The notes under the pieces were generated by a model. It was not told the origin of the DNA. It was given only the letters and a program-made list of their open reading frames with translations, and searched no databases. Shown here one piece after another: positions 14,329-56,384 of a stretch of DNA of 64,000 nt; positions within the stretch are counted from its first letter, which is position 1, and each line of letters opens with the position of its first letter. The stretch lies in NCBI RefSeq assembly GCF_041679265.1, contig NZ_JBGFSM010000008.1, positions 124,877 through 188,876 of the forward strand, written 5' to 3'. Origin of the DNA: Zunongwangia sp. H14 (lineage in GTDB: Bacteria; Bacteroidota; Bacteroidia; Flavobacteriales; Flavobacteriaceae). The position numbers and the translations under genes are program-made.

Positions 14329-14550
14329 ACATTTTTAGATTTTTGGGATTAGTAATTCTGGTAAAAGACGAATGTAAATGTAGGTAAGAAATTAATATGT
14401 TCTCAAATATTTCTTTTTAAAGTTATCAAGAAAAAGTTGTTAATAAGCTTATTTTCAGCACAATAAAAATTTATTAACAACAAAAAGTTGACAAATAATT
14501 AAAATAAATAAGGAAGTAGAAAAAACTAAAGAAGTGTAGCAGAATTTCAG

Positions 14551-14595
14551 AAAATAAAAAAGAGGCTGATTGAAATTTCAATCAGCCTGCTTTGA
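14551..14595 (-). terminator. intrinsic-terminator-like hairpin inside the 559 bp nrdJ 5' leader
   Basis: Perfect 13-bp-arm inverted repeat AGGCTGATTGAAAtttCAATCAGCCT. On the minus (nrdJ-sense) strand it is followed by CUUUUUUAUUUU. Confidence 0.45.
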
Positions 14596-14887
14596 ATTAA
14601 CACCTATGAAAATTCAAAATAAAAACTTTATTCTGTTGTTAAATTAAAAGAGATAACTCCTCAAATTCATTGCCCCATTTTCATTGGAGGTAGGGTAATA
14701 TCTTTTAGAAAAGTAGATCAATATCTTTATTTCCTGAACATTTCAATTTAAAAAACCAATATAGGAACTTTTTTTCTGGTATCCATAAAAAATTACAAGT
14801 ATCATCTATAATTAATAACTTGGCGGCCAATCGAACATTTTTGCAGAAATATATTAAATATATTAAGGAGAATAAAGGAAGTACCTA

Positions 14888-15550
14888 ATGATGGAGCATC
14901 GCAGAGGAGTAATTTTTGATCTGGATGGAGTACTGGTGGATACCACAGGCTTACAATTCCTGGCATGGAGGAAAACAGCCAATGCTCTTGGAATTGATTT
15001 TTCAGAAGAACAAAATGAGGAATTAAAAGGTATTAGCAGGGAAGATTGCTTCCATAAAATCCTATCCTGGGGCAATGTAAAACTTTCAGATGAAGACTTC
15101 CGGGAGTATATAAAAGTCAAAAACCAATACTACCTTACTTATATTGAAAGTATGGATCAATCTGTGATTTTTCCAGGAGTTTTGGAATTGTTAGGGTTGC
15201 TTGAAGAAGAAGAGATTCCCTTTGCGCTGGGATCTGCGAGTAAGAGTGGTGCTATAATATTGAAGAAATTAGGTTTATTCTCAAAGTTTAAAGCGGTAGT
15301 GGATGGAAATGATGTTAAAAACGGTAAACCAGATCCGGAAATATTCCTTTTAGCAGCAAAAAAATTGAATTGTAAACCTTCTTCCTGTATGGTTTTTGAA
15401 GATTCCTTAGCAGGCATAAAGGCAGCAAACCTCGCAGGCATGTGGAGTATTGGAGTGGGGAATAGGGGGTTACTTTCAGTAGCCCACTTTACCTTTAATG
15501 ATCTTACGGAAGTTCACAGAAGATTTGTAATGGATTTTCCGGCCGTTTAA
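14888..15550 (+). CDS. HAD-superfamily hydrolase, beta-phosphoglucomutase family
   Basis: Motif I (VIFDLDGVLVDT) and C-terminal HAD motifs (KPDPEIF, FEDSLAGIKAA). Confidence 0.75.
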   Translation: MMEHRRGVIFDLDGVLVDTTGLQFLAWRKTANALGIDFSEEQNEELKGISREDCFHKILSWGNVKLSDEDFREYIKVKNQYYLTYIESMDQSVIFPGVLELLGLLEEEEIPFALGSASKSGAIILKKLGLFSKFKAVVDGNDVKNGKPDPEIFLLAAKKLNCKPSSCMVFEDSLAGIKAANLAGMWSIGVGNRGLLSVAHFTFNDLTEVHRRFVMDFPAV

Positions 15551-15767
15551 TTCCGGAGATAGGCTGGTTTTATCTAAATTTTCTGAAATAATAGAAGGAG
15601 TGGGTGAATTAACTTTTTCTGCGAATTCCTGATAATTCAGAACTAAAAATCATAAAACTTTAAAAAGCTATGGTTAAAATTGTTCAAATTTGTTAGTTAT
15701 TAACCGAAAACGATTTAGTTTTTTATTAAATTAGGTTATATTGAATAATTAAAATAGCTTTGGCTTA

Positions 15768-17770
<2,003 letters not shown>

Positions 17771-40890: not shown

Positions 40891-41772
40891 TCAGTCATTT
40901 TCCTTTAGCACCAAAACAGGAATATTGGGGTTAAAATCTATTTCCTCTATAAAAGGCTGTGCAAACAATTTTGAGAAAAACCCCTGTTTCCGCTTATAGA
41001 TGGCGAGCAAATCACTCTGCCTGCTTTCAATAAAAAGACGGGTACCGGTGCTTATGGTAGTTTTGGTAAGGGTATGGAAACTACAATCAAATTTTATAAA
41101 GTAATCTTTAAGAACCTTCTTATTGGATTCCTGTTCTTTGTTCAGTTTTTTATTATCGGTATCAATATAAAGCACCCTTATGCCGGCTCTAAAACTGGAA
41201 GCAATATCCATAAGGGCAGTGAGCTCTTTAAGTTTAAAAGCCATTCTAAAGCTGGTTGGGAATACAATTTCCCTTACCAGATCTGTGGTTGGTGAACATT
41301 CTTCTGGAATTACCAGGATTGGGCATTTTTCTATTTTATCTGAAACTAAAGTTACCGTATTGTCGTAAGCTGAATTTATAGAAACATTTTCCCCTTTAGA
41401 CCCCATAAGGATGAGGTCTATATTATGCTTATCCACAGCATCCTGAATAGCTTCCGGCAGTGGCTGGTTAGAAGACAGAGTTTCAAACTGATGTCGCGGA
41501 TTTTCCTTGCGGAAAGATAAGCCCTGCAAAACTTTTTCAAGACCTTCCAGGGAATCTTCCCTGGCTCTTTCAGTGGCGTTTTTTCCGGAAGATTTAGATA
41601 AAGAAAGTTTTTCCGGTAAAGTGCTTCCGCTTTGATAGGCATTCAAGACATAAAATGTGCAGGGAATGTTTTTATATAAACCAAAACCATACACCAGGGC
41701 GTTCCATGCATGCTTTGAAAAATTTGTAGGAACAAGAATTCTTTTCTCCATACTTATGTTTTTAAGTTTCAA
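40891..41772 (-). CDS. tandem universal stress protein (two UspA domains)
   Basis: Two UspA-like modules (KRILVPTNFSKHAWNAL, DLILMGSKG). Confidence 0.65.
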   Translation of the reverse strand: MKLKNISMEKRILVPTNFSKHAWNALVYGFGLYKNIPCTFYVLNAYQSGSTLPEKLSLSKSSGKNATERAREDSLEGLEKVLQGLSFRKENPRHQFETLSSNQPLPEAIQDAVDKHNIDLILMGSKGENVSINSAYDNTVTLVSDKIEKCPILVIPEECSPTTDLVREIVFPTSFRMAFKLKELTALMDIASSFRAGIRVLYIDTDNKKLNKEQESNKKVLKDYFIKFDCSFHTLTKTTISTGTRLFIESRQSDLLAIYKRKQGFFSKLFAQPFIEEIDFNPNIPVLVLKEND

Positions 41773-41898: not shown

Positions 41899-42651
41899 TT
41901 ACAACTGTTCCCGGAGTTTTTTAAATTCCTGCTCGAGGTAATCCAGTTTATTTGCCAAAGCAGATGCATTGTCCGGCAGCCTTTGGAGAAAAGTATATTT
42001 TATGAGCCATAATTCTTTTACTTCTGCCAAAGGTATCACAGTATCTTTAATATTATTATTGGTGGCCTTCAGGGTTATTTTGTCTCCAAACAAATAAAAC
42101 TTACGCAGGTACAAACCTTCCTTTACAAGCGTAAGGATAAGGCTGCCATTTTCTGTTTTTAAAAAATTCTCGGCTTGAACCCTTTCACCAATAACAACAT
42201 CTTTAGGCCTTAAGCCACGTTCATTCTCTACGTTGTCTTCATTAGAAATCACAAAACCCCGGAACGTACCATTAGGATCTACCGGGAGGCAAAGGCAGGG
42301 AAGGTCTTCTATAAAGTGCGGCTTATCGTAATACCGAATATAATCCTGTTCACTGGCTGGTACAATGCAGGGAACCTTGGGAAAATCATCTTTTTCAAAA
42401 GTTCCCTGCAGAGGCAGGTCCTCTTTAAATTTTAAAAGTTTGTTCACCGTAAGTTCTTTGGTGAGCAGATCGTCTATAGTAATGCTAAAATAATTAGCTA
42501 TTTTTATAATAGTTTCAATACGCGGCTCACTTCTCTCTTCTTCATAAGCCCCTAAAGTCCCGCGTTTTAACTCGAACATCTCTGCAAAAGCCTGCTGGCT
42601 CAGCTTCTTGACGTTTCTGATCTTCCGGATATTCTTTCCAAAGTAAGACAT
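41899..42651 (-). CDS. XRE-family HTH transcriptional regulator with C-terminal S24 (LexA/CI)-like domain
   Basis: HTH_3 (IRKIRNVKKLSQQAFAEMFELKRGTLGAYE). The C-terminal beta-rich region has S24-like organisation (FVISNEDNV, KDVVIGERV, GSLILTLVKEGLYLRKF). The catalytic Ser/Lys assignment is uncertain. Confidence 0.6.
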   Translation of the reverse strand: MSYFGKNIRKIRNVKKLSQQAFAEMFELKRGTLGAYEEERSEPRIETIIKIANYFSITIDDLLTKELTVNKLLKFKEDLPLQGTFEKDDFPKVPCIVPASEQDYIRYYDKPHFIEDLPCLCLPVDPNGTFRGFVISNEDNVENERGLRPKDVVIGERVQAENFLKTENGSLILTLVKEGLYLRKFYLFGDKITLKATNNNIKDTVIPLAEVKELWLIKYTFLQRLPDNASALANKLDYLEQEFKKLREQL

Positions 42652-42883: not shown

Positions 42884-43324
42884 TTGTATTATTACGCCTT
42901 AAACCATCAGCAATCAAAAAACCAATCGATGAAAAACCATTTTCAGATTACAAAAAACTTTTTGCTGGAACTTAATTTTAATATCACCTTCGAAAATGAA
43001 GAAGAAGGAATTATAATGGTTCAAAAGGAAAGTTTTGGAATTAAGAACCTAATTCTTGGAGTAGCGCCGCCTATATTAATTATGGAGCAATATATCTTCA
43101 GGATTAACAATCAGTCAGAAAAAATTTTCAGAAGCCTGCTTCAAAAGAACAGGGACATAATTCATGGAGCTTTTGTTCTGGACGATTCGGGAGAAAAAGT
43201 GATTTTCAGGGATACACTTCAAATACAAAACCTGGACATAAACGAGTTGGAAGGTTCTTTAAATTCCCTCAGCTTATTGATGAGTGAATATTCAGACCGG
43301 ATTATAGAATTTTCAAAATACTAA
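42884..43324 (+). CDS. YbjN-like small protein (type III secretion chaperone-like fold); the start may be the internal ATG at 42929
   Basis: 146 aa. Its hydrophobic periodicity and motif blocks (FENEEEGIIMVQKE, GAFVLDDSGEKVIFRDTLQIQNLDINEL) resemble the YbjN/DUF2596 family. Assignment by eye only. Confidence 0.4.
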   Translation: MYYYALNHQQSKNQSMKNHFQITKNFLLELNFNITFENEEEGIIMVQKESFGIKNLILGVAPPILIMEQYIFRINNQSEKIFRSLLQKNRDIIHGAFVLDDSGEKVIFRDTLQIQNLDINELEGSLNSLSLLMSEYSDRIIEFSKY

Positions 43325-43334
43325 ACCTAATGTT

Positions 43335-44051
43335 ATGAACATTTTTAGACGATTATTTAAAATAGGGGAAGCCGAAGCAAATTCAGCCATAGATAAAATG
43401 GAAGATCCCATTAAACTAACCGAGCAGGGAATAAGGGATTTAAAGCAGGACCTTGATAAAAATATGGAAGCCCTGGCACAGGTAAAGGCCCTGGCTATTC
43501 GTGCCCGCAACGACCAGGAAGAATACCTGGAGAAAAAAGAAGATTATCACAATAAAGCCATTCTTATCCTCAAAAAAGGAGAGCGTGGTGAAATGGATAA
43601 AACCGAGGCTGATCGCCTGGCCAGGGAAGCGCTTATCAAGAAAGAGGAATCTCAGAAACATGTGGAAAGGGCAGAGGAGGAAGCGCGTAAATTCAATGAA
43701 AATGTAAGCCAGTTGGAACGCAATATTCAAACGATAAAAGCCAGCATCAGCAATTGGGAAAATGAGCTTAAGACCTTAAAGGCAAGGGTAAAAGTTAGCA
43801 ATGCCACCAAAATCCTCAACAAGCAAATGGCTGAAATTGACAGTAGCAGTACCGTGTCTATGTTGGAGAGGATGAAAGAAAAAGTTGCCCAGGAAGAAGC
43901 CCTGGCCGAAGCTTACGGAGATATTGCCGGGGCCACAAAAACCATAGATGACGAGCTGGAGAAAGCCGCGAATTCTACAGAGACCAAGGCTGAAGATGAT
44001 TTAAGCAAACTCAAAGACCAGCTGGGAATTAACAAAGATAAAAATTCCTGA
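43335..44051 (+). CDS. pspA: PspA/IM30 family protein (phage-shock protein A / Vipp1; ESCRT-III superfamily)
   Basis: MNIFRRLFKIGEAEANSAIDKMEDPIKLTEQGIRDLKQDL is the canonical PspA N-terminus. The rest is an all-helical coiled coil. 238 aa. Confidence 0.85.
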   Translation: MNIFRRLFKIGEAEANSAIDKMEDPIKLTEQGIRDLKQDLDKNMEALAQVKALAIRARNDQEEYLEKKEDYHNKAILILKKGERGEMDKTEADRLAREALIKKEESQKHVERAEEEARKFNENVSQLERNIQTIKASISNWENELKTLKARVKVSNATKILNKQMAEIDSSSTVSMLERMKEKVAQEEALAEAYGDIAGATKTIDDELEKAANSTETKAEDDLSKLKDQLGINKDKNS

Positions 44052-44053
44052 AA

Positions 44054-44752
44054 GTGGACAGTTTAACGCACATATTGTTTTCCCAGGTTAATCTCACTTT
44101 AAGCATCCTGCTCATTTTACTCCTGGTCTACTGGTTATTAACCATGGTTAGCGGGATAGATTTTGATTATGATGTAGATATTGATGTAGATGTGGATGCA
44201 GATGTTGGGATGGAAGGCGGGAATATGGAATTCCAGGAGGTTTCCAATGCCGAGTTAAACCGGGAAGATGTTGTGGGAAAGCGTATCCAGCCTTTAAAAT
44301 GGTGGCAGGTCTTTCTTATTTATTTCAATTTCGTGGGGCTGCCGTTTATGTTCACCTTTACCTGTTTTGTTTTTATCTGGTGGTTTAGTACCGTGTTAAT
44401 AACAGCGCTAACCGTTACCTACGACAATGTGCTGGGATTTGCCATCTTAATAATTGCATTTTTTGCCTCTCTTTTTATAAACAAGATCTTTACCAGTCCC
44501 TTTAAAGGCTTTTTTAAAAACCTGAATAAAGATGGGGATAAAGCAGTGGATTATATTGGCAGGCAGGGCGTGCTTTTATCCAGCATATCCGGTGACAGGA
44601 TGGGAAATGCTGAAATTAGTGTAAACGGGGATTCCATGTCTGTTTACGTAAAATCCCTTCACGGCGAGGCTTTGAATTATCATGATAAAATATTGATAAT
44701 AAAGCAATCTGCCGATAAAAATTACTTCTTAGTACAATCTTATAACGACTAA
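44054..44752 (+). CDS. NfeD/YqiJ-like membrane protein with C-terminal OB-fold
   Basis: N-terminal TM, an acidic DFDYDVDIDVDVDADV linker, further TM helices and a C-terminal beta-rich segment (GRQGVLLSSISGDRMGNAEISVNGDSMSVYVKS). It lies 15 nt upstream of the flotillin gene, as in yqiJ-yqiK. Confidence 0.55.
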   Translation: MDSLTHILFSQVNLTLSILLILLLVYWLLTMVSGIDFDYDVDIDVDVDADVGMEGGNMEFQEVSNAELNREDVVGKRIQPLKWWQVFLIYFNFVGLPFMFTFTCFVFIWWFSTVLITALTVTYDNVLGFAILIIAFFASLFINKIFTSPFKGFFKNLNKDGDKAVDYIGRQGVLLSSISGDRMGNAEISVNGDSMSVYVKSLHGEALNYHDKILIIKQSADKNYFLVQSYND

Positions 44753-44767
44753 TCAATCTATCTTAAA

Positions 44768-46846
44768 ATGAATCAAATTTTACCAATCATCGGAATTGGA
44801 TTAGGGGGAATATTGTTCCTAATCATAGTGTATTTCGCGATTATCGCGATGTTTTATAAGAAAGTGCCCCAGGGCCGTGCCATTGTGCGTACAGGTTTTG
44901 GCGGGACCAAAGTAGCCACAGATAAAGGCCTTTACGTGGTGCCTGTTTTTCACCGGGTGGAAGTCATGGATATTTCTGTAAAGAAAATCCAGATTGAGCG
45001 CCAGGCACATGAAGGCCTTATTTGCCGGGACAATATGCGGGCAGATATAAAAGTGGCTTTTTTTGTGAGGGTCAACAACGATATTTCCTTTATAAAGCGT
45101 GTTGCCCAAACCATTGGGGTGGACCGTGCTTCCAGAATTGAAACTTTGGAGGACCTTTTTGAAGCCAAATTTTCAGAAGCTCTTAAAACCGTTGGAAAGA
45201 AATTCGACTTTATTGAGCTTTATGAAGCACGCCGGGAATTCCGGGATGAAATTGTGAATATTATTGGGACAGATCTTAACGGCTATACCCTGGAAGATTG
45301 TGCTATAGACTTTCTTGAGCAAACGCCAATCACCCATCTTAAACCCGATAATATTTTAGATGCTGAAGGAATTAAGAAAATTACCGAGCTTACCGCTGTT
45401 CAGAATATGAAGGCGAATCTTATTAAAAGGGATGAAGAAAAAACCATTCGCAAGCAGGATGTGGAAGCCCGGGAAGCTATTCTGGAGCTTGATAAACAAT
45501 TAGCTGAAAAAGAAGAGCAGCAAAAACGCGAAGTGGCCAATATTAAAGCCAGGGAAGCAGCAGAAATAAGCAAGGTGGCTGAAGAAGAGCGACTTAAATC
45601 TGAAACCGCCAGGATTGCCACGGAAGAAAAAGTTAAGGTGGCTGAAGAAAATATGAACCGGCAGATTATTGTGGCCGCCAAGAATAAGGAACGCACAGAT
45701 GCTGTGGAAAGCGAAAGAGTTGAAAAAGACCGATTACTGGAAGCTACCGAGAGAGAACGTATTGTGACCTTAGCTCAAATTGAAAAAGAAAAAGTGGTTG
45801 AGGTTGAGAAAAAGAATATCCAGGATGTGATTCGGGACCGGGTAATGCTGGAAAAAGGAGTGGTGGAAGAGCGTGAGAATATGAAAGATATTGAAGCTTT
45901 TAAAACCGCCGACCGTGAGAAGAAAGTAAAAATAACGGTTGCTGAAGCCAATGCCCAGGAAGACCTGATTAAAATAATAAAAGCTGCCGAGGCCAAAAAA
46001 GAAGCGGCTAAACAAAGAGCCGAAGAAATTAATATTGAAGCCCTGGCACAGAAAGAGGCCAGCGAAAAAGAAGCCAAAGCCAGAAAGACCATTGCTGAGG
46101 CCAAAGCCAAAGAAGAAGCCACCATTGGATTATCTGAAGCTGAAGTGATGCATGCCAAGGCAGATGCCAGCGAAAGGCAGGGAATAATGGAAGCTCTTAT
46201 TATCGAGAAAAAAGCCAAAGCCGAAGCTGCCGGAATGGAAGCCAAAGCTGAAGCCAGCCTTAAGGAAGGAAAAGCAGCTGCCGAGGTCATTAAGGAAAAA
46301 GCCCTTGCCGATGCTGCTGGAATTGAGGAAAAAGCGGCCGCAATGAAGAAACTGGACGGAGTTGGAAAAGAGCATGAAGAATTTAAATTGAAGTTAGATA
46401 AAGAACTTCAGGTAGATTTGGCCCATATCAATATTCAGAAAGATATAGCAGATGCCCAGGCGCACGTGATAAGCGATGCCCTTAAAGCCGCCAAAATAGA
46501 TATTGTTGGTGGGGAAACTATGTTCTTCGATCAGATTATCGGGCAGATTACCAGGGGTAAAGGGATAGACAGGCTGGTGCAAAACAGCAGCAATGTTCAG
46601 GATTTAAAGGATTCTATATTGGGAAGTGAAGATATTAAGGGAAACCTGCTTACAAAAGTCCGCGAGTTTTCCCATAAATACGGGATCTCTTCAGAAGATA
46701 TCAAGAACTTTACCATCGCCAGTCTTTTGATGGAGCTCAAACAAAAATCTAATGATCCTAATGAGCAAACCATGCTGGGCAACCTTTTCAACCTGGCGAA
46801 AGGGCTGGGGCTTTCAGATAAAAAGGTAGCTGCTTTAAAAGCCTAA
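44768..46846 (+). CDS. flotillin (SPFH/band-7 domain, YqiK/FloT-like) with long EA-rich coiled coil
   Basis: N-terminal TM plus SPFH domain (AIVRTGFGGTKVATDKGLYVVPVFHRVEVMDIS), then ~350 aa of Glu/Ala/Lys-rich heptads. 692 aa. Confidence 0.85.
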   Translation: MNQILPIIGIGLGGILFLIIVYFAIIAMFYKKVPQGRAIVRTGFGGTKVATDKGLYVVPVFHRVEVMDISVKKIQIERQAHEGLICRDNMRADIKVAFFVRVNNDISFIKRVAQTIGVDRASRIETLEDLFEAKFSEALKTVGKKFDFIELYEARREFRDEIVNIIGTDLNGYTLEDCAIDFLEQTPITHLKPDNILDAEGIKKITELTAVQNMKANLIKRDEEKTIRKQDVEAREAILELDKQLAEKEEQQKREVANIKAREAAEISKVAEEERLKSETARIATEEKVKVAEENMNRQIIVAAKNKERTDAVESERVEKDRLLEATERERIVTLAQIEKEKVVEVEKKNIQDVIRDRVMLEKGVVEERENMKDIEAFKTADREKKVKITVAEANAQEDLIKIIKAAEAKKEAAKQRAEEINIEALAQKEASEKEAKARKTIAEAKAKEEATIGLSEAEVMHAKADASERQGIMEALIIEKKAKAEAAGMEAKAEASLKEGKAAAEVIKEKALADAAGIEEKAAAMKKLDGVGKEHEEFKLKLDKELQVDLAHINIQKDIADAQAHVISDALKAAKIDIVGGETMFFDQIIGQITRGKGIDRLVQNSSNVQDLKDSILGSEDIKGNLLTKVREFSHKYGISSEDIKNFTIASLLMELKQKSNDPNEQTMLGNLFNLAKGLGLSDKKVAALKA

Positions 46847-47031
46847 TAATGGTTCAGGAAAATGTTTTAAGATCATTTTTCCGCTGAAGTGTAGTGAAAT
46901 GACCCATAAAGGAAAGCCTGTCTGCATGGGCAGGCTTATCCTGTTATGGAAATCTATTTCAGCTTTACCTCCAATTTCGGGTCTGCAAGGCTGGAAACGG
47001 GAATGTTTATCCAAATTATGATTAGCAATAA

Positions 47032-50000
47032 ATGAAACAAGAAGATAACAAAACTGTAAAAAATGATGCCCTGGATGGCGGCACTTACGAAATTATCCGC
47101 AACCGGCTGGCCGTTCATAAATCAAATTTGCAGGAGCGTTTACAGCAGTTAAATGAAAGCCGCAAAACGGTCTTTGGTTCTCTGGAAACGCAGCTTATCG
47201 CCAGTAACCGCATTAGTACTGAAAATAATTGCGTGGCCAGGGATATTATTTCCCTTGGGAATACCTGCATTTTTGGCTATAATGTGCATTTTGGTTTGCG
47301 TACCGAGATCAAACTTTCTGATGTTTTCAGCGTATACCAATTTGCAGAAAACCGGTTTGTGCAGGTGGCGCATTCTATTCTTGAAGATGAAACCTTCAAA
47401 AGCGATTTTACCAATCTCTATAAATATTACCGCAATACCATTTTCTCGAAATTTGCCAGAATCGGCAATTACCTGCACATGGTTTTTCAGCTAAGTGACA
47501 GCGTTACTGATATCAAGACTTTTAAGTGGCTTATCGCTGATGACAAACTGGAATATATAGACAATCGCAGCGAGCATGAATTTAAATATCCGCAGCAGCA
47601 CCAGTTTAAGTGGCAGGAAGCAAACCGCGATATGCAGCGTTACGGGGAGCACCCGCATGTGGCTATTTTGGATAAGGTATTTGTGGAAACCATTGGTGGG
47701 GATCTCACCATCAAAATTGAAGACAATACCAATGATGGTAAAGGAATTTATTCTGAAGCCGTAAGCTATAAAGACCAGACGCTGGATGACGGCCAGATTC
47801 GCTTTGCCGATTTGGGAAACCTCATTATCCTGGAAATAAAACCATTCCAGGAGGAGCCAAGGTATTTTGTGTACAATCACAAGGTGCAGGAGGTACAGAA
47901 AATAGATTCTGTTAAGGAAGCGGTGGTATTGCTGCCCGATGAGCAGGGCATTATTTTTCCCAATGGGTATTATTTGCAAACCGGCGAATTTCATCTGTTT
48001 AGTACAGAGGTCCAGCAGCTTAAGTTCCAGGGAACTATTGCTTCTACAAACGGTGAGGATTTTCTGTATATTTTTTACTCTCCCGTGGAGGGCACTTACA
48101 AGCTCATGGATTACAATATGATAGCCCAGGAAATTAAAACTCCCATTGTTTGCGGCGGCTTTACGGTATTGCCAGATGGTGAACTTTGCTGTTTTAAAGC
48201 TGAAGCGGAGCAAACAAAGCACCATATGATCCAGATTTGGCAAACGCCTTACCTGGAAGGCGATTTTATGCCTTCGGAACACCAGGATTCCATGCTGTAT
48301 AAAATTGGCAATAAAGATATTGTGAAGGCCATGGCCGAGGCGCGGGAACTTATTACTTTGCTGAATAAAGAAGATAATTATGACGGCCTGTACACCGATA
48401 TTGCTAAAATTTCCAAAGACATTCTTGATGCTTATTACTGGCTTGGCGAAGCCGAAACTTCAAATTTAAAAGAACCGCTTAAAGAGATCAACCAGGCGGC
48501 AAATTCAGCTATAGATGAATTTCAGAAGGTCGTTCAGCTAAAGAAAAATGCAGCGGCAGAAACAAAGGCAATTCAGCATAAAGCAGACGATCTTTTCAGC
48601 AAAATTAAAAGCACTTCTTTTAAAAGTATAGATGAGTTTGTGGCATTGCTCTCGCAGTTAAGAAGCCTGCGCGGGGAGCTAATTGGCTTATATGAACTCC
48701 GTTATGTAGACGAAGAACTGATTAAAAACCTGGAAAATGAATTAGCGGAACATACATCTAAAATTTCCCGCAGGTGTGTGGAATTTTTGCTGGATGAGAA
48801 GGCTTTGCAGCCTTACCATGAAAAAGTTTCCGAAAAAGGGCAAAAACTGGAGCAGATCCAAAAAGTGGTTGAAGCAAAACAGCTGGAAGATGAGGTGAAC
48901 CAGATTGCGGCAGATTTGGAAATGCTTATCGATATTGTTACCAACCTGGAGATTGAAGACACTTCGCATTCTACAAAAATCATTGACAATATTTCGCTAA
49001 TTTTCGCGACCATTAACCAGCTGAAGGCGGCCTTAAAGAATAAAAGGAAGCGCCTGGGCGGCAAGGAAGCCAAAGCCGATTTTGCCGCGCAGCTCAAGCT
49101 AATAGACCAGAGCATTATTAATTACCTGGACCTCGCTAAAACTCCGGAGAAGTGCGATGAATTTCAGAATAAAATCAGTATTCAGCTGGAAGAGCTGGAA
49201 GGCAAATTTGCCGATTTTGAAGAGTTTATTGCTGAAATTATTGAAAAAAGGGAAGAGATTTATAACGCTTTTGAAAGCAAAAAAGCAGCGATCACTGAAA
49301 AGCGGAACAAAAAAGCGATGGCTTTGCAAAGCGCGGCCGATCGTATCCTGAAAAGCATCGGCAAAAAAGCGGAAAGCCTGAAATCTGTTGCTGAAATCAA
49401 CGGTTACTTCGCGGCCGATCTTATGGTAAATAAGCTGCGGGATATTGTGAACCAGCTAAACGAATTGGAAGATAGCGGCAATGCCGAAGAAATTGAAACT
49501 GCCCTTAAAACCAGCCGGGAAGATGCCATTAGAAAATTAAAAGATAAGCAGGACCTTTATGAAGACGGCGAGAATATTATAAAGCTGGGAAATCATAAAT
49601 TCGGCGTGAACCGGCAGGAACTGGATCTTAGCTTCGTGATGAAAAATGGCAGTTTGTGCTATCACCTTAGCGGAACAGATTTTTACCAGGAACTGGAAAA
49701 CGAAGTGCTGCTTAACAGCAGGAAATACTGGAACAGGGAATTTATTTCAGAAAATGAAGAGGTTTACCGTGCGGAATATCTCGCTTTTAGAATTTATCAA
49801 AAGCAAGAAATTATAAAGCTGGCAAAAATGGATAAGCAGGAATTACTTCATCTTGTCCGGGAGGAAAGCAGCAGCAATTATTCTGAAGGTTATATTAAAG
49901 GTGTGCATGATGAGGATGCCGCCGGGATATTGGAGGTTTTGGTACAAAAACGTTTGGAGTTGGGAATTTTGTCTTTTTCTTCCAGGGTGCGGGCGCATGG

Positions 50001-51897
50001 GCAATATTTCTGGAACTCTCTGGAAGAGAATGTAAAATCAGGTTATAACAATTCGATAAAAGCTTCAGGACAGGTACTTAAATATTTTCCAAATACCCGG
50101 GAATACGAGTTTTTAATAGAAGAACTTAAGAGCGGAATTACTGATTTTGCAGAAGCCACAGGCCTTTTTTCTTCGGAAGAAAGCCAGGAAACGGCGGAGT
50201 ATTTATTTGAAGAACTTCAGGGGGACAATAATTTTGCTGTTAGCAGCCTGGCTTCAGAATTAACTGAAGAATTCCGCGGTATGCTGAAAAAGGAAAAGGC
50301 ACGGGATCAATTTGATAACAGCCTGGAGAGCCTGGGTTCTTATGCGGCTAAAATAAGGTTGATAAAACAATGGCTGCAGGCGTATGTAAAAGCTACGGGA
50401 AAGGAGCAGCAGTTAAAATATATTGAGGAAGCAGTGTGTGGAATGATGTTTCCAAAGCAGGAGTATTACAAAATTGAAGCTTCTCCCAACGCCGTGATCA
50501 CAGGATTGAAAGGTGAGCATACGGGCATAGAAAATTCTGAATTGCAATTTGATTTTCATGAATTTACCAATCGCTTACAAAAATTCATCAATCATGAAGT
50601 CCCCGCTTTTAATGCTTTTAGAAAAGCACGGCATGAGGTTACTGAAAAGCTGAAGGAGCAGTTAAAACTGGAAGAATTTAAGCCGCGGGTGCTTACTTCT
50701 TTTGTGCGCAATAAGCTGATAGACCAGGTATATTTCCCTTTGTTTGGGGAAAACCTGGCCAAGCAGCTGGGAAGTGTGGGGGACAACCGGCGTACGGACA
50801 GAATGGGAATGCTCCTGCTTATTTCGCCGCCGGGATATGGAAAAACCACTTTAATGGAGTATGTGGCTAACCGCCTGGGTTTGGTATTTATGAAAATAAA
50901 CGGTCCGGCGATTGGGCACGAGGTCACCTCGGTAGATCCTGAAGCCGCTAAAAATTCCGCCGCCAGGGAAGAATTGAAAAAACTGAACCTTGCTTTTGAA
51001 ATGGGGAATAACGTAATGCTGTACCTGGACGATATCCAGCATTGCAATCCTGAATTTCTTCAGAAGTTTATTTCTTTATCTGACGGCACTCGAAAAATTG
51101 AAGGGATCTATAACGGGAAACCGAAGACCTACGATTTGCGCGGGAAAAAGTTTTGCGTGGTCATGGCCGGGAATCCTTATACGGAGAGCGGGGAGAAATT
51201 CCGTATTCCCGATATGCTGTCCAACCGGGCCGATATTTATAATCTTGGGGACATTATTGGAGATACCGCAAATTTGTTCAAATTAAGCCTGATGGAAAAC
51301 TCGCTTACTTCAAATCCTGTTTTGCATCAACTTAGTTCAGGAAATTTTGAAGATGTATATACTTTGATTCAACAGGTAGAGAATAAATCGGAAACCGGGG
51401 AATTAAAGAGCAATCATACCCACCAGGAAATCCAGGATTACAAGGCGGTTATACAAAAAGTGTTGAAGATAAGGGACGCGGTTTTAAAAGTAAATGAGGC
51501 TTACATAAAGTCTGCGGGCATGGAAGATGAATACAGGACAGAGCCGGCTTTTAAACTACAGGGCTCTTACCGGGATATGAATAAGCTGGTGAGCAAGGTT
51601 GTTCCCATTATGAATGATAAAGAACTTGACAGCCTCCTTCTTTCTCATTATGAAAATGAATCCCAAACATTAACCGCTGCTGCTGAAGCTAATTTATTAA
51701 AGTATAAAGAATTAACTCAGAAGCTTTCTTCTGAAGAGAAAGAGCGTTGGGAGCAGATCAAAGCAACTTTTGTAAAGAATAACAAATTAAAAGGGCTGGG
51801 CGGGAAAAATGAAATTGCACAGGTAATCTCACAAATGATGGCTTTTACAGAAAATCTTGAAGGAATTAAAATTGTGCTTCAAAACGGATTGAAATAG
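47032..51897 (+). CDS. 1621-aa multidomain protein with C-terminal AAA_5 (MoxR/dynein/McrB-like) ATPase domain; function unknown
   Basis: One uninterrupted ORF. Walker A LISPPGYGKTTL (~aa 1268), Walker B VMLYLDDIQ (~aa 1333), sensor VVMAGNP and Arg motif MLSNRAD. The upstream ~800 aa are K/E-rich helical or coiled-coil. The N-terminal ~420 aa are globular and aromatic-rich. No TM segments. Confidence 0.8.
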   Translation: MKQEDNKTVKNDALDGGTYEIIRNRLAVHKSNLQERLQQLNESRKTVFGSLETQLIASNRISTENNCVARDIISLGNTCIFGYNVHFGLRTEIKLSDVFSVYQFAENRFVQVAHSILEDETFKSDFTNLYKYYRNTIFSKFARIGNYLHMVFQLSDSVTDIKTFKWLIADDKLEYIDNRSEHEFKYPQQHQFKWQEANRDMQRYGEHPHVAILDKVFVETIGGDLTIKIEDNTNDGKGIYSEAVSYKDQTLDDGQIRFADLGNLIILEIKPFQEEPRYFVYNHKVQEVQKIDSVKEAVVLLPDEQGIIFPNGYYLQTGEFHLFSTEVQQLKFQGTIASTNGEDFLYIFYSPVEGTYKLMDYNMIAQEIKTPIVCGGFTVLPDGELCCFKAEAEQTKHHMIQIWQTPYLEGDFMPSEHQDSMLYKIGNKDIVKAMAEARELITLLNKEDNYDGLYTDIAKISKDILDAYYWLGEAETSNLKEPLKEINQAANSAIDEFQKVVQLKKNAAAETKAIQHKADDLFSKIKSTSFKSIDEFVALLSQLRSLRGELIGLYELRYVDEELIKNLENELAEHTSKISRRCVEFLLDEKALQPYHEKVSEKGQKLEQIQKVVEAKQLEDEVNQIAADLEMLIDIVTNLEIEDTSHSTKIIDNISLIFATINQLKAALKNKRKRLGGKEAKADFAAQLKLIDQSIINYLDLAKTPEKCDEFQNKISIQLEELEGKFADFEEFIAEIIEKREEIYNAFESKKAAITEKRNKKAMALQSAADRILKSIGKKAESLKSVAEINGYFAADLMVNKLRDIVNQLNELEDSGNAEEIETALKTSREDAIRKLKDKQDLYEDGENIIKLGNHKFGVNRQELDLSFVMKNGSLCYHLSGTDFYQELENEVLLNSRKYWNREFISENEEVYRAEYLAFRIYQKQEIIKLAKMDKQELLHLVREESSSNYSEGYIKGVHDEDAAGILEVLVQKRLELGILSFSSRVRAHGQYFWNSLEENVKSGYNNSIKASGQVLKYFPNTREYEFLIEELKSGITDFAEATGLFSSEESQETAEYLFEELQGDNNFAVSSLASELTEEFRGMLKKEKARDQFDNSLESLGSYAAKIRLIKQWLQAYVKATGKEQQLKYIEEAVCGMMFPKQEYYKIEASPNAVITGLKGEHTGIENSELQFDFHEFTNRLQKFINHEVPAFNAFRKARHEVTEKLKEQLKLEEFKPRVLTSFVRNKLIDQVYFPLFGENLAKQLGSVGDNRRTDRMGMLLLISPPGYGKTTLMEYVANRLGLVFMKINGPAIGHEVTSVDPEAAKNSAAREELKKLNLAFEMGNNVMLYLDDIQHCNPEFLQKFISLSDGTRKIEGIYNGKPKTYDLRGKKFCVVMAGNPYTESGEKFRIPDMLSNRADIYNLGDIIGDTANLFKLSLMENSLTSNPVLHQLSSGNFEDVYTLIQQVENKSETGELKSNHTHQEIQDYKAVIQKVLKIRDAVLKVNEAYIKSAGMEDEYRTEPAFKLQGSYRDMNKLVSKVVPIMNDKELDSLLLSHYENESQTLTAAAEANLLKYKELTQKLSSEEKERWEQIKATFVKNNKLKGLGGKNEIAQVISQMMAFTENLEGIKIVLQNGLK

Positions 51898-52033: not shown

Positions 52034-54166
52034 ATGAAAGAAAAGAAAGATAAGCCTTCAAAAAAAATAGAAGACTTAAACGCGAATACCTCTAATCCTA
52101 AAGGGAAAACAATGACTACCAATCAGGGATTAAAGGTAAACGACACCAACAATTCCCTTAAAGCCGGAGCGCGTGGAGCCACTCTTTTGGAAGATTTTAT
52201 CCTAAGAGAAAAAATAACCCATTTTGACCATGAGCGTATCCCGGAAAGAATTGTTCATGCCCGCGGAAGTGGTGCCCATGGTTATTTTGAGTTATACGAA
52301 AGCCAGGAAGAGATTACCAAAGCAGGAATTTTTACCGATACTTCAAGAAAAACACCTGTATTTGTTAGATTTTCTACCGTGGCGGGATCAAAAGGATCAC
52401 CGGATCTTGCAAGGGATGTTCGTGGATTTGCCACAAAATTCTATACAGATGAAGGCGTTTTTGACCTGGTAGGGAATAACATGCCCATCTTTTTTATTCA
52501 GGATGCCATGAAGTTTCCGGATCTTATCCATTCTGTAAAACCAGAACCGGACAGGGAGATACCGCAGGCAGCTTCAGCCCACGATACTTTTTATGATTTT
52601 GTCTCACATACCACAGAAACCCTTCATAACCAGATCTGGCTGATGAGCGACCGCGCGATCCCTAGAAGTTTCAGGATGATGGAAGGCTTTGGGATACATA
52701 CTTTCAGGTTAGTGAATGAAGAAGGGAAATCCCATTTCGTGAAATTTCACTGGAAACCTTTGCTGGGAGTAAAATCGGTTACCTGGGACGAAGCAGTTAA
52801 AATTCATGGTGCCGATGCAGATTTCCACCGCAGGGACCTTTGGGATGCCATAGAAGCCGGCCAGTATCCGGAATGGGAATTAGGATTCCAGGTGGTGCCG
52901 CAGGAAGACGAGCATAAATTCGATTTTGACCTGCTGGACCCTACAAAACTTATTCCGGAAGAAATGGTGCCGGTAAAACGTATAGGTAAAATGACGCTTA
53001 ACCGTAATCCAGATAATTTCTTTGCCGAAACAGAACAGGTGGCATTTCACCCCGGGCACGTGGTTCCTGGAATAGATTTCACCAATGATCCTTTACTGCA
53101 GGGAAGGTTATTTTCTTATACCGATACGCAATTATCTCGATTGGGAAGCCCAAATTTCCATGAGATTCCAATCAATCGCCCGGTAAATGAAGTACATAAC
53201 AATCAGCGGGACGCGCATATGAGAATGACGGTGAATAAAGGCAAAACAGCTTATTTTCCAAATTCCATCGGGGGAGGATGCCCACATCTTGCCAAAATAG
53301 CCGAAGGCGGTTTTAGCAGTTATGAAGAGCGTATAGACGCCAAGAAGATAAGGGAGCGCAGTGAAAGCTTTAACGATCATTTTTCGCAACCTGCTTTATT
53401 TTATAGAAGTTTGACTGCACATGAGCAGGAACATGTGGTACAGGCGTATTCCTTTGAATTGGGGAAATGTACTTATGATCATATCAAGCAGCGAATGCTG
53501 TATATCCTTAGCCAGATAGACGAAGATCTTGCCGCCAAGGTTTCTGTAAATCTCGGAATGGAGATTCCTGAGGAAGTTGACGGGCCGGTAAATCAAGCGA
53601 TTGGAGCCGATGCCGATGTTGAAAAACATCAGCCGGGACCTAAAAAAATGTACCTTGATAAATCCAAGGCATTAAGCCAGGAATTTCTTCCTTCAGAAGG
53701 TATTGCGACCAGGAAAATTGCCGTACTGGCCGGGGATGGCTTCAGCGAAAGCGATTACAATAAAATGAAAAATTCTTTAGAAGATGAAGGAGCCATGGTT
53801 CAGATTGTAGGAGTACACGGAGGTACAATTAAATGCAATAAAGGCGATAAACACCAGGTAGCGCATGCGTTAATGACTACAGAAAGCGTTGTTTTTGATG
53901 CGCTGTATATTCCCGGCGGAAAAGAAAGCATTGATGCCTTAATGAAACAGGCAAAGGCTAAAAAGTTTATTAATGAAGCTTTGAAACATTGTAAAGCCAT
54001 TGCTTTAGACAATGAAGCTGAAGAACTCTTTGATGCCACCTACGGTAAAGATTTTAAAGAGGACGAAGCGGTTTGTATAAATGAGAAACCGGAAAAATTT
54101 ATTAAGGCAATTAGCAAGCATCGTAACTGGAAAAGGGAAAAAGCGGCTATGGAGATCCCCGCCTAA
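52034..54166 (+). CDS. katE: catalase HPII (large-subunit clade, with C-terminal DJ-1/PfpI-like domain)
   Basis: Catalase core ([20 protein letters not shown], proximal RLFSYTDTQ). At 710 aa it is the large-subunit type. Confidence 0.9.
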   Translation: [710 protein letters not shown]

Positions 54167-54455: not shown

Positions 54456-56384
54456 TTGTTTGGATGGATGCTTAAGATACCTTTTCTTCTAAGCATATTT
54501 TCCGGCGCCCCTACAATGAAGGTGAATACAGCAATCCTTTTTGTATTATCTGCCGTAGGAGTACTTTGCCAGCAAACCCGGAGAAGGGAATTTAAATTTA
54601 TAAAATTTTTACTGGGGAGTATAATTCTTGTAACAGGCGGCCTTAGTCTATTACAGTATCTATTTGATGTAAACCTGGGAATTGATAATTTTCTAATTCC
54701 AGATCCTTTTTCGCCCAGGTTTCCGGGAAGAATGGCAAGAACAACAGCCTTATGTTTCGCTCTTTTTGGATTGGGTTTAATGACATCAAATGCTTCAAAA
54801 AAGCTTTTTAAAAAGACGGTAAAGTATTCTTTTGGGCTGCTCACCCTTATTTCTATATTGGCCATCCTTACATATTTTTTGCAGGCCATTACAGCTACAC
54901 AGGTTCTGGTATTCAATACTATGGCATTTCATACAGCGGGAAGTTTTTTAATATTATCTCTCTGCTTATCTTTAACAAATCCCCGCCATACCTATATAGA
55001 CTTTATCTCTGGGGTAAAAGTGGGAAGTAAACTGGCCCGTAACCTCTTGCCATTTCTAGTAATACTTCCTTTGCTGCTCAGTCTTTTGCTTATTTTTATT
55101 ATTAGTACACAACAAATTAATACAGAGTTGGGAATAACTCTATATACCATTAGTTATGCTTTTTTTGGACTTGTTTATACTTCCTGGGTATCGGCAAAAT
55201 TAAATAAAGAGGATTTAAGAAGGCTAAAGCTGGAACATTCTCTTTACAATACCAACAGGCAACTTTCTAAAAATGTTCTTTTTAACGAACAACTGGTAAA
55301 AACCACTCCGGCCTCCATTTTAATCGTCAACCTTGGAAATATGAATGTGCGCTATATTAATAAAGGTATTTATGACAATGGGGGATTAACCAAAGAAAGA
55401 ATAGAAGGAATGCCGCTGGAGGAAATTTTACCTTTTATTCATCCCCAGGACCGAAAAAGGATGATTGAGTTACACCAGATGATTCTAAAATCTTCTGATG
55501 AAGAAATTTTTGAGATCGAGGTGCGTCTTAAGCTGAAGACGGTGGGCTGGGAATGGTTCAATGTGCGCGCAACTGTTTTTGAGCGAAGGGACGAATCCTG
55601 GGTAAACGAATACGTTCTTTTAGTGAGGAATGTTACTAATGTAAAGCAAATCCAGAAGGAATTAGTAGATGCAAGGCAGTTCTCAATTTTTGGAGATGTA
55701 GCCAGGACTCTCGCACATGAGCTGCGCAATCCTATTGCCAGTATAGGCATGGCCACAGAGATCTTGGAGCATACTATTGATAATGAGGAAGTGAAAGAAG
55801 TGAAGCCTTATCTGGAAATTCTTAACAGGAGCAATAAAAATTTAAATGAATTAGTCTCTAACCTTCTAAATGCTTCCAAATATCAAAAGGCCGAGCTGCA
55901 AAGAGAGGAGCTAACGCAAATTGTGGAAGAGACATTGCGCAAAGCAGCAGACCGTATATACCTTTCCGGGATTGAACTGGTGAAAAAATATGAAGGAACC
56001 TATTTTATCATGGCAGATTGGGAGAAACTGGAAATTGCCTTGCTTAACCTTATAATAAACGCCGGAGAGGCTACCACGCCAGGCCGGGGAAAAATTATTA
56101 TTGATATTGTAAAAGAAGTTAGTGCAATAAAGTTAAGCATTACAGATAATGGCCATGGTATGGAGAAAGAACAGGAAAATAAATTATTTGATGCTTTTTA
56201 TACCAGTAAGGTAAATGGCATTGGAGTGGGTTTAAATGCTGTAAAGAACATCCTTGAAGATCATGGTGCTTATATTAAAGTTAAAAGCAAACTTACAAAA
56301 GGTACTACTTTTTCTATTTATTTCCCATTGCAGGAATTTGAGAATAATAATTACGAGGAATCTTTAGACCGGCAAGGCGATTGA
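54456..56384 (+). CDS. sensor histidine kinase with N-terminal multi-TM domain and PAS domain
   Basis: ~7 N-terminal TM helices, a PAS-like region (ILIVNLGNMNVRYINKG), HisKA H-box (ARTLAHELRNPIASI) and HATPase_c (ITDNGHGM, GIGVGL). No cognate response regulator is adjacent (orphan). Confidence 0.8.
   Translation: MFGWMLKIPFLLSIFSGAPTMKVNTAILFVLSAVGVLCQQTRRREFKFIKFLLGSIILVTGGLSLLQYLFDVNLGIDNFLIPDPFSPRFPGRMARTTALCFALFGLGLMTSNASKKLFKKTVKYSFGLLTLISILAILTYFLQAITATQVLVFNTMAFHTAGSFLILSLCLSLTNPRHTYIDFISGVKVGSKLARNLLPFLVILPLLLSLLLIFIISTQQINTELGITLYTISYAFFGLVYTSWVSAKLNKEDLRRLKLEHSLYNTNRQLSKNVLFNEQLVKTTPASILIVNLGNMNVRYINKGIYDNGGLTKERIEGMPLEEILPFIHPQDRKRMIELHQMILKSSDEEIFEIEVRLKLKTVGWEWFNVRATVFERRDESWVNEYVLLVRNVTNVKQIQKELVDARQFSIFGDVARTLAHELRNPIASIGMATEILEHTIDNEEVKEVKPYLEILNRSNKNLNELVSNLLNASKYQKAELQREELTQIVEETLRKAADRIYLSGIELVKKYEGTYFIMADWEKLEIALLNLIINAGEATTPGRGKIIIDIVKEVSAIKLSITDNGHGMEKEQENKLFDAFYTSKVNGIGVGLNAVKNILEDHGAYIKVKSKLTKGTTFSIYFPLQEFENNNYEESLDRQGD

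Follow-up and report, generated by a model that had tools for sequence, protein, structure and literature searches.

The 64,000-nucleotide stretch analysed here (hereafter the window) comes from Zunongwangia sp. H14 (contig NZ_JBGFSM010000008.1, positions 124,877 to 188,876, assembly GCF_041679265.1). It carries the gene of an AAA+ ATPase, the last of five co-directional genes that also encode a CesT/Tir-like chaperone, a PspA/IM30 protein, a membrane protein with about three transmembrane segments (3-TM protein) and a long flotillin. We find that, across several phyla, this ATPase gene almost always follows a flotillin gene directly and that the single motor module at the C-terminus of the protein is, according to structure models, of the MoxR/dynein/midasin (AAA_5) type. 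The gene linkage, the anatomy of the protein, the clade of the motor and the conservation of its motifs lead us to favour, with about even confidence, a role in which the protein uses ATP to remodel, or to chaperone, membrane assemblies of flotillin and PspA.

The ATPase gene almost always follows a flotillin gene across phyla

Homologous loci were collected by scanning one genome per species, which gave at least 585 loci. Eighty were kept, from Bacteroidota, Planctomycetota, Verrucomicrobiota, Kiritimatiellota and Desulfobacterales, and neighbourhoods were counted in those 63 where the upstream sequence reached 5.5 kb or more. In 61 of them, the gene immediately before the ATPase gene, on the same strand, encodes a flotillin. 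In 60 loci, an orthologue of the 3-TM gene stands upstream of flotillin, giving the order 3-TM, flotillin, ATPase. The full operon, with XRE-type regulator, CesT/Tir, PspA, 3-TM protein, flotillin and ATPase as in the window, was found in 36 loci, and the 3-TM, flotillin and ATPase genes alone in 20. The CesT/Tir gene is present in 36 loci, and a divergent XRE regulator occupies the matching position, together with the CesT-PspA module, in 37. PspA is missing from about one third of the loci. Therefore, as flotillin is near-universal in these loci and PspA is not, flotillin rather than PspA is the invariant partner of the ATPase.

The flotillin-ATPase pair is also found on the Pseudomonas fluorescens SBW25 megaplasmid pQBR103, where it sits behind PspA and a polyamine-metabolism gene set, and on one Streptomyces plasmid. 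Identity of the ATPase declines with taxonomic distance and synteny is kept across phyla. An earlier sequence-only reading of the window had proposed a functional link between the ATPase and the adjacent PspA and flotillin genes. The tabulated neighbours of the homologues, together with the Pseudomonas and Streptomyces replicons, support this link.

Motif conservation and predicted clade of the motor module

Conservation was assessed on 68 aligned sequences, the query and 67 full-length representatives of 1541-2036 amino acids (aa), a family with a single C-terminal AAA+ module. The representatives were drawn from a search with the first 500 aa of the protein against 1.84 billion cluster representatives (754 matches at E <= 1e-3, the lowest N-terminal identity being 27%). 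The motor contains the motifs PPGYGKTT (aa 1266-1273), VMLYLDDIQH (aa 1328-1337), MAGNP (aa 1378-1382) and MLSNRAD (aa 1395-1401). The Walker A lysine, the Walker B DD pair and the sensor-1 asparagine are each conserved in 67 of the 68 sequences, and R1399 in all 68. Mean identity to the query over the 67 divergent members is 69% in the AAA core as compared to 24-40% in the remaining protein, and a cross-phylum alignment of the core showed a mean column identity of 66%. The C-terminal extension carries the motif RTEPxFKLQGSYR at aa 1502-1514, with R652, P655, F657 and Q660-R664 (segment numbering) being invariant. This motif probably supplies sensor 2, R1514 being the likely sensor-2 arginine.

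The AAA motifs span nucleotides (nt) ~50824-51234, within the interval 50790-51300 given for them in the sequence-only reading, and all the motifs and all the coiled-coil and beta-like strings quoted there are present. Degeneracy of the motifs among homologues, which the first reading had named as a finding that would refute its proposal, was not observed in these divergent members.

At the sequence level, Pfam AAA_5 scores 24.8 bits as compared to a cut-off of 22, over profile positions 2-126 of 139. PF00004 also passes, with 30.9 bits, yet only positions 1-73 of its 131 are covered. When the PDB was searched with the whole protein or with a profile of the AAA core, the matches to p97, Rix7 and Cdc48 were limited to 40 aa running from the P-loop as far as strand 2, and the resemblance to p97 D1 is confined to this stretch. 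These matches first hinted at a placement in the classical AAA clade, which was overruled by two fold searches.

Two AlphaFold models were obtained from a 63-sequence alignment, one for aa 1-860 (pLDDT 87.3) and one for aa 851-1621 (pLDDT 91.1). Foldseek returned MCM, CbbQ and NorQ (MoxR), RuvB and Lon, and no member of the classical clade among the top 50. In the second fold search, MoxR proteins (CbbQ, NorQ), dynein and midasin were nearest, with classical ATPases ranked under MoxR, dynein and Clp D2. In the model, helix 3 and strand 4 flank a pre-sensor-1 beta hairpin, whose two strands cover aa 1355-1360 and 1363-1368. The helix-2 beta-hairpin insert was not seen in this predicted model, where aa 1291-1308 form a four-residue helix and coil. 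No match to a MIT domain was obtained in the Pfam scan of the ATPase. Overall, structure comparison, through the Foldseek neighbours and the pre-sensor-1 hairpin, supports the initial assignment to AAA_5 rather than to the classical clade.

Anatomy of the protein

An NCBI entry, 'DNA repair ATPase [Zunongwangia sp. H14]', is 100% identical to the ATPase, and over 5250 homologues reach E <= 1e-5, showing that the gene is not a chance open reading frame (ORF). The single uninterrupted frame reported at the outset was confirmed from ATG to stop codon. The best 120 homologues are all flavobacterial, measure about 1615-1650 aa and have identical Pfam domains. By its sequence, the protein is a member of the Pfam DUF3686/DUF7902/AAA family, named 'DNA repair ATPase' at NCBI. 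Its predicted mass is about 186 kDa. As already noticed in the first reading, it has no transmembrane segment, the maximum mean hydropathy in a 19-residue Kyte-Doolittle window being 1.19.

The N-terminal domain of about 420 residues had been considered unassignable. It is in fact matched by DUF3686 (PF12458) along the whole profile (positions 2-448 of 448, E = 4.6e-180), and a match to DUF7902 (PF25472; positions 1-84 of 85, E = 1.4e-27) follows. In the AlphaFold model, a helix at aa 18-48 precedes ~27 beta strands (aa 54-404) arranged in about seven groups of four. The predicted strand pattern fits a putative seven-bladed propeller, and the N-terminal part has been named 'beta-propeller repeats' in PMC11237479. 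No sequence repeat was detectable among the putative blades, and no solved structure related to the domain was found by family profile search.

A coiled-coil stalk of about 800 residues had also been proposed. The helical part is shorter, about 420 residues: aa 421-842 are all-helical in the model, with 48% of positions marked by a crude heptad score. For aa 843-1225 this score is 0%, and aa 851-1225 belong to a distinct domain of mixed alpha/beta structure. The longest helices of the arm, confidently modelled, count 48, 58 and 52 residues. In the model, the arm appears as a series of helical bundles resembling those of spectrin. Repeats of the spectrin type are characteristic of linkers and tethers.

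The middle domain, at aa 851-1225 (nt 49582-50706), is built, in the model, from a small beta unit, an all-alpha part, more strands and a long helix, and it contains the invariant motif YxKGVHDxDA. No credible Pfam match was obtained from any of 20 orthologues, and a profile search of the PDB gave one weak match, probably due to chance. This domain is the genuinely orphan part of the protein. No known enzyme fold turned up for either the N-terminal or the central regions, so that membership of a known enzyme family unrelated to membranes, envisaged in the first reading as a reason to abandon its proposal, found no support.

The operon in the window

The coordinates of the operon and of the domains of the ATPase are collected in Table 1. 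Successive genes of the operon are separated by 10, 2, 15 and 185 bp.

Table 1. Positions in the window of the operon genes and of the ATPase domains
Feature	Position	Strand	Remarks
XRE-type helix-turn-helix (HTH) regulator, divergent, S24-like C-terminal domain	41899..42651	-	HTH_3 E = 4.7e-11; Peptidase_S24 weak, E = 0.0086
CesT/Tir-like chaperone	42884..43324	+	CesT_Tir_1 E = 2.8e-56, aa 16-145
PspA/IM30 (ESCRT-III superfamily)	43335..44051	+	PspA_IM30 E = 1.1e-42; 10 bp after CesT stop
Membrane protein, ~3 TM, beta-rich soluble C-terminal domain	44054..44752	+	hydrophobic aa 4-38, 86-123, 114-150
Long flotillin, 692 aa: N-terminal anchor, SPFH/Band-7, long C-terminal region	44768..46846	+	Band_7 E = 1.1e-11, aa 32-176; hydrophobic aa 1-34
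ATPase ORF	47032..51897 (stop codon included)	+	uninterrupted single frame from ATG, 1621 aa
DUF3686 domain, aa 33-469	47128..48438	+	one helix, then ~27 beta strands; propeller-like
All-helical arm, aa 421-842	48292..49557	+	ten helices; like tandem spectrin-type bundles; holds DUF7902
DUF7902, aa 590-673	48799-49050	+	inside helical arm; Pfam match
Middle domain, aa 849-1225 (~375 aa)	49576..50706	+	AlphaFold, pLDDT >90; no detectable relatives
AAA+ alpha/beta core, aa 1226-1410	50707..51261	+	Walker A K1271, Walker B D1333-D1334, sensor-1 N1381, arginine R1399
Lid and C-terminal helical extension, aa 1411-1621	51262..51894	+	DSSP of model; conserved motif RTEPxFKLQGSYR

The 3-TM protein has no match in Pfam or NCBIfam, even at E <= 10; this type of protein is termed YqiJ/YuaF in PMC11237479, and the topology, with ~3 hydrophobic segments and a soluble C-terminal domain, agrees with it. 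The CesT/Tir ORF begins at a TTG codon (42884) and is matched by Pfam only from residue 16, so the true start may lie downstream. The HTH domain of the regulator resembles those of phage repressors (RstR family). In its C-terminal domain, P94 and P123 are the only positions conserved at 90% or more among 38 orthologues. An S24 protease activity of this regulator was considered and rejected, as a conserved Ser/Lys dyad is absent among these orthologues, and a 'protease' label is therefore doubtful.

The spacer between the flotillin and ATPase genes contains a 9-bp stem-loop, AAGCCTGTC-TGCATG-GGCAGGCTT, at 46914-46937, without a T-run, which could be an attenuator or an RNA-processing site. Scans for promoters and terminators gave counts near the shuffled expectation (38 versus 28.1 promoter-like and 17 versus 13.5 terminator-like), with a sigma-70 consensus that is unsuited to Bacteroidota. 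Directly after the ATPase gene, at 52034-54166 (+), lies a gene for a large-subunit catalase whose C-terminal domain is of the DJ-1/PfpI type; conservation of this neighbour was not seen across the 80 related loci. Upstream of the operon, at 40891-41772 (-), is a gene for a universal stress protein, and downstream, at 54456-56384 (+), one for a PAS-histidine kinase.

Some variations of the neighbourhood were observed in other genomes. The only conserved gene content downstream of the ATPase gene or in the flotillin-ATPase gap is a polyamine module that is specific to a subset of loci and absent from the window. In six Bacteroidota loci (L011 at 12316-16193, L013, L022, L042, L052 and L062), the ATPase gene is followed by DUF4178, lipoprotein, DUF350 and spermine-synthase-like genes. 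This set corresponds to the second PspA-associated module of PMC11237479; two modules are therefore fused in these six loci. On pQBR103 (L081, NC_009444.1, 85395-104236), one co-directional cluster comprises genes for PspA, rhomboid, DUF2491, DUF350, DUF1190, glutathionylspermidine synthase, a hypothetical protein, SPFH and the ATPase. At L034 and L050, the neighbours of the ATPase gene encode a 7TMR-DISM/SpoIIE protein, DUF2147, Uma2 and a TonB_C protein.

Proposed role and alternatives

In the reading that we favour, the ATPase would be a soluble cytoplasmic enzyme with one motor module ending a long arm made of DUF3686, the spectrin-like bundles and the orphan domain. It would be the dedicated partner of the scaffold encoded upstream, that is flotillin and the 3-TM protein. 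In Bacteroidota, this scaffold would also take in the CesT/Tir chaperone and PspA, under control of the XRE-type regulator. We infer that the subunits could assemble as a ring via the AAA module, with the conserved arginine acting in trans, and that the arms could dock on flotillin and/or PspA assemblies from the cytoplasmic side. Under envelope stress, the binding and hydrolysis of ATP would then power the building or dismantling of these sub-membrane polymers, or the handling of their clients. Vps4 with ESCRT-III, FtsH with HflK/C and MoxR ATPases with their partners would be functional analogues.

This reading is favoured because the linkage to flotillin extends over several phyla and the two plasmids, because the ATPase motifs are conserved in at least 67 of the 68 sequences within the most conserved part of the protein, and because MoxR, dynein and midasin are the structural neighbours of the motor. 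It is also favoured because flotillin and the 3-TM protein are anchored in the membrane and the ATPase lacks any transmembrane segment. Moreover, the authors of PMC11237479 independently predict the same role, in sub-membrane assembly dynamics, and a link between SPFH proteins and PspA exists in B. subtilis, where PspA localisation requires an SPFH protein (as cited in PMC10936438).

Several points weigh against it. In two of the 63 loci (L034 and L050), no partner gene is nearby, flotillin, the 3-TM protein and PspA all being missing. The Walker B motif reads DD(IQH), with the DD pair at nt 51028-51033, and not the usual DE, in 67 of the 68 members; this may reflect slow or regulated hydrolysis, or a switch-like role instead of a motor. 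The nearly invariant loop from strand 2 to helix 2, KINGPAIGHxVTSLDP, lacks an aromatic pore-loop residue. As the helix-2 hairpin insert is not seen either, substrate threading is not indicated. MoxR ATPases normally act together with a VWA partner, and no VWA domain was found in the operon or in the flanking proteins scanned. Finally, experimental work on this ATPase family was not found in the searchable literature.

A maturation chaperone in the style of MoxR, which we regard as unlikely, would take the flotillin platform as its workbench and, as CbbQ, NorQ and RavA do for their targets, insert, fold or extract membrane-associated clients or cofactors, while flotillin and PspA themselves would not be remodelled. 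CbbQ and NorQ are indeed the closest structures. The large beta domain could bind clients, as could the orphan middle domain. In addition, PMC11222466 describes flotillins as scaffolds stabilising client proteins. However, the operon contains neither a VWA/MIDAS partner nor a conserved client gene, and no partner other than flotillin is kept in almost every locus.

We give still less credence to a nucleotide-regulated tether or switch, in which ATP binding and slow hydrolysis would control whether the long arms cross-link or cap flotillin and PspA assemblies, with no mechanical cycle. The DD Walker B motif, the absence of both the aromatic pore loop and the helix-2 insert, and the spectrin-like repeats all go in this direction. 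In contrast, the invariance of N1381 and R1399 and the position of the AAA core as the most conserved part of the protein form the pattern expected if hydrolysis by an oligomer matters.

An anti-phage or conflict-system NTPase, acting at the membrane as a giant effector or sensor, had been put forward in the first reading as another possible resemblance. The phage-repressor-like HTH of the XRE-type regulator, the copy on pQBR103 and the historical description of PspA as a 'phage shock' protein would agree with such a role, but we consider it improbable and the survey did not uphold it. Matches in PADLOC-DB 2.0 are marginal only (IetA with 16.1 bits in the P-loop region and LmuB with 14.3 bits in the PspA coiled coil). 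The ATPase matches 0 of 50,697 phage records and only 13 among 72,556 plasmid records, the majority of these 13 being megaplasmids or chromids. The GC content of the operon (0.41-0.42) is like that of the remaining window, and ATPase identity that follows taxonomy, with synteny kept across phyla, is unlike patchy, fast-evolving defence islands.

A DNA repair function is very improbable, as its sole support is an inherited name (PF12458 is described in Pfam as 'ATPase involved in DNA repair'), the Foldseek matches to MCM and RuvB reflect the common AAA+ fold, no DNA-binding, nuclease or SMC/RecN/SbcC-type domain was found in Pfam or NCBIfam, the NCBIfam matches being limited to RuvB and CDC48, below threshold and at the P-loop, the conserved neighbours are all membrane-stress proteins and DUF3686 is not tied to DNA repair in the literature searched. 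The name 'DNA repair ATPase' is thus probably misleading and spread via automatic annotation.

Returning to a remodeller of flotillin and PspA assemblies, a widespread ATPase that nearly always follows flotillin in many phyla is an obvious candidate regulator of flotillin cages and PspA polymers. More tentatively, the family could be the bacterial counterpart of Vps4 or NSF, a homo-oligomeric dynein/MoxR-type motor with spectrin-like arms that would spend ATP on dismantling or reshaping flotillin cages and, in loci that have them, PspA/ESCRT-III polymers. If this were true, it would account for the recycling of bacterial membrane-repair scaffolds without Vps4, and SPFH and ESCRT-III assemblies would be recognised by modules of a new kind, DUF3686 and the middle domain.

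Comparison with known systems

Pfam and NCBI already record the family, and both the operon and its predicted role are already in print, so that the novelty implied in the sequence-only reading does not hold. By comparative genomics, PMC11237479 describes the same operon type, including a 'Betapropeller+Coiled-coil+AAA-ATPase', as well as shortened operons that keep only flotillin and the TM protein, in some cases together with the ATPase. Its Table S3 gives an identical gene string for Dokdonia donghaensis DSW-1 (neighbourhood of ANH61663.1), in which the divergent cHTH+protease regulator also figures. The genes are ordered and oriented as in the window, and the Dokdonia ATPase orthologues are ~69% identical. 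There is no essential difference, the Dokdonia operon being the orthologous one in another flavobacterial genus.

MoxR ATPases of the AAA_5 group (CbbQ, NorQ, RavA) have ~300 aa and a VWA/MIDAS partner, whereas the present ATPase has an N-terminal arm of 1250 aa, no VWA partner gene, no helix-2 hairpin in the model and DD in Walker B. Dynein and midasin/Rea1 concatenate six AAA modules per chain. The present ATPase has one, and any ring must therefore be a homo-oligomer.

As with Vps4 and ESCRT-III, an AAA+ ATPase is encoded beside a protein of the ESCRT-III superfamily, PspA, and polymer turnover is plausible by analogy. According to a 2025 review (PMC7619361), a Vps4-like ATPase is seemingly absent in bacteria, so that PspA polymerisation must be regulated otherwise. 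Unlike Vps4, the present ATPase is not of the classical AAA clade, has a pre-sensor-1 hairpin and shows no MIT domain; moreover, it is flotillin that is nearly always there, whereas PspA can be absent. With FtsH-HflK/C, the system has in common that an SPFH-family scaffold and an AAA+ machine are paired at the cytoplasmic membrane, but the present ATPase has neither a protease domain nor a transmembrane anchor and is of another AAA clade.

With respect to PMC11237479, which leaves the AAA clade unassigned and does not name flotillin as the invariant partner, the present analysis places the motor by MoxR, dynein and midasin and identifies flotillin as the near-universal partner. It further adds the DD Walker B motif, the spectrin-like arm and the orphan middle domain.

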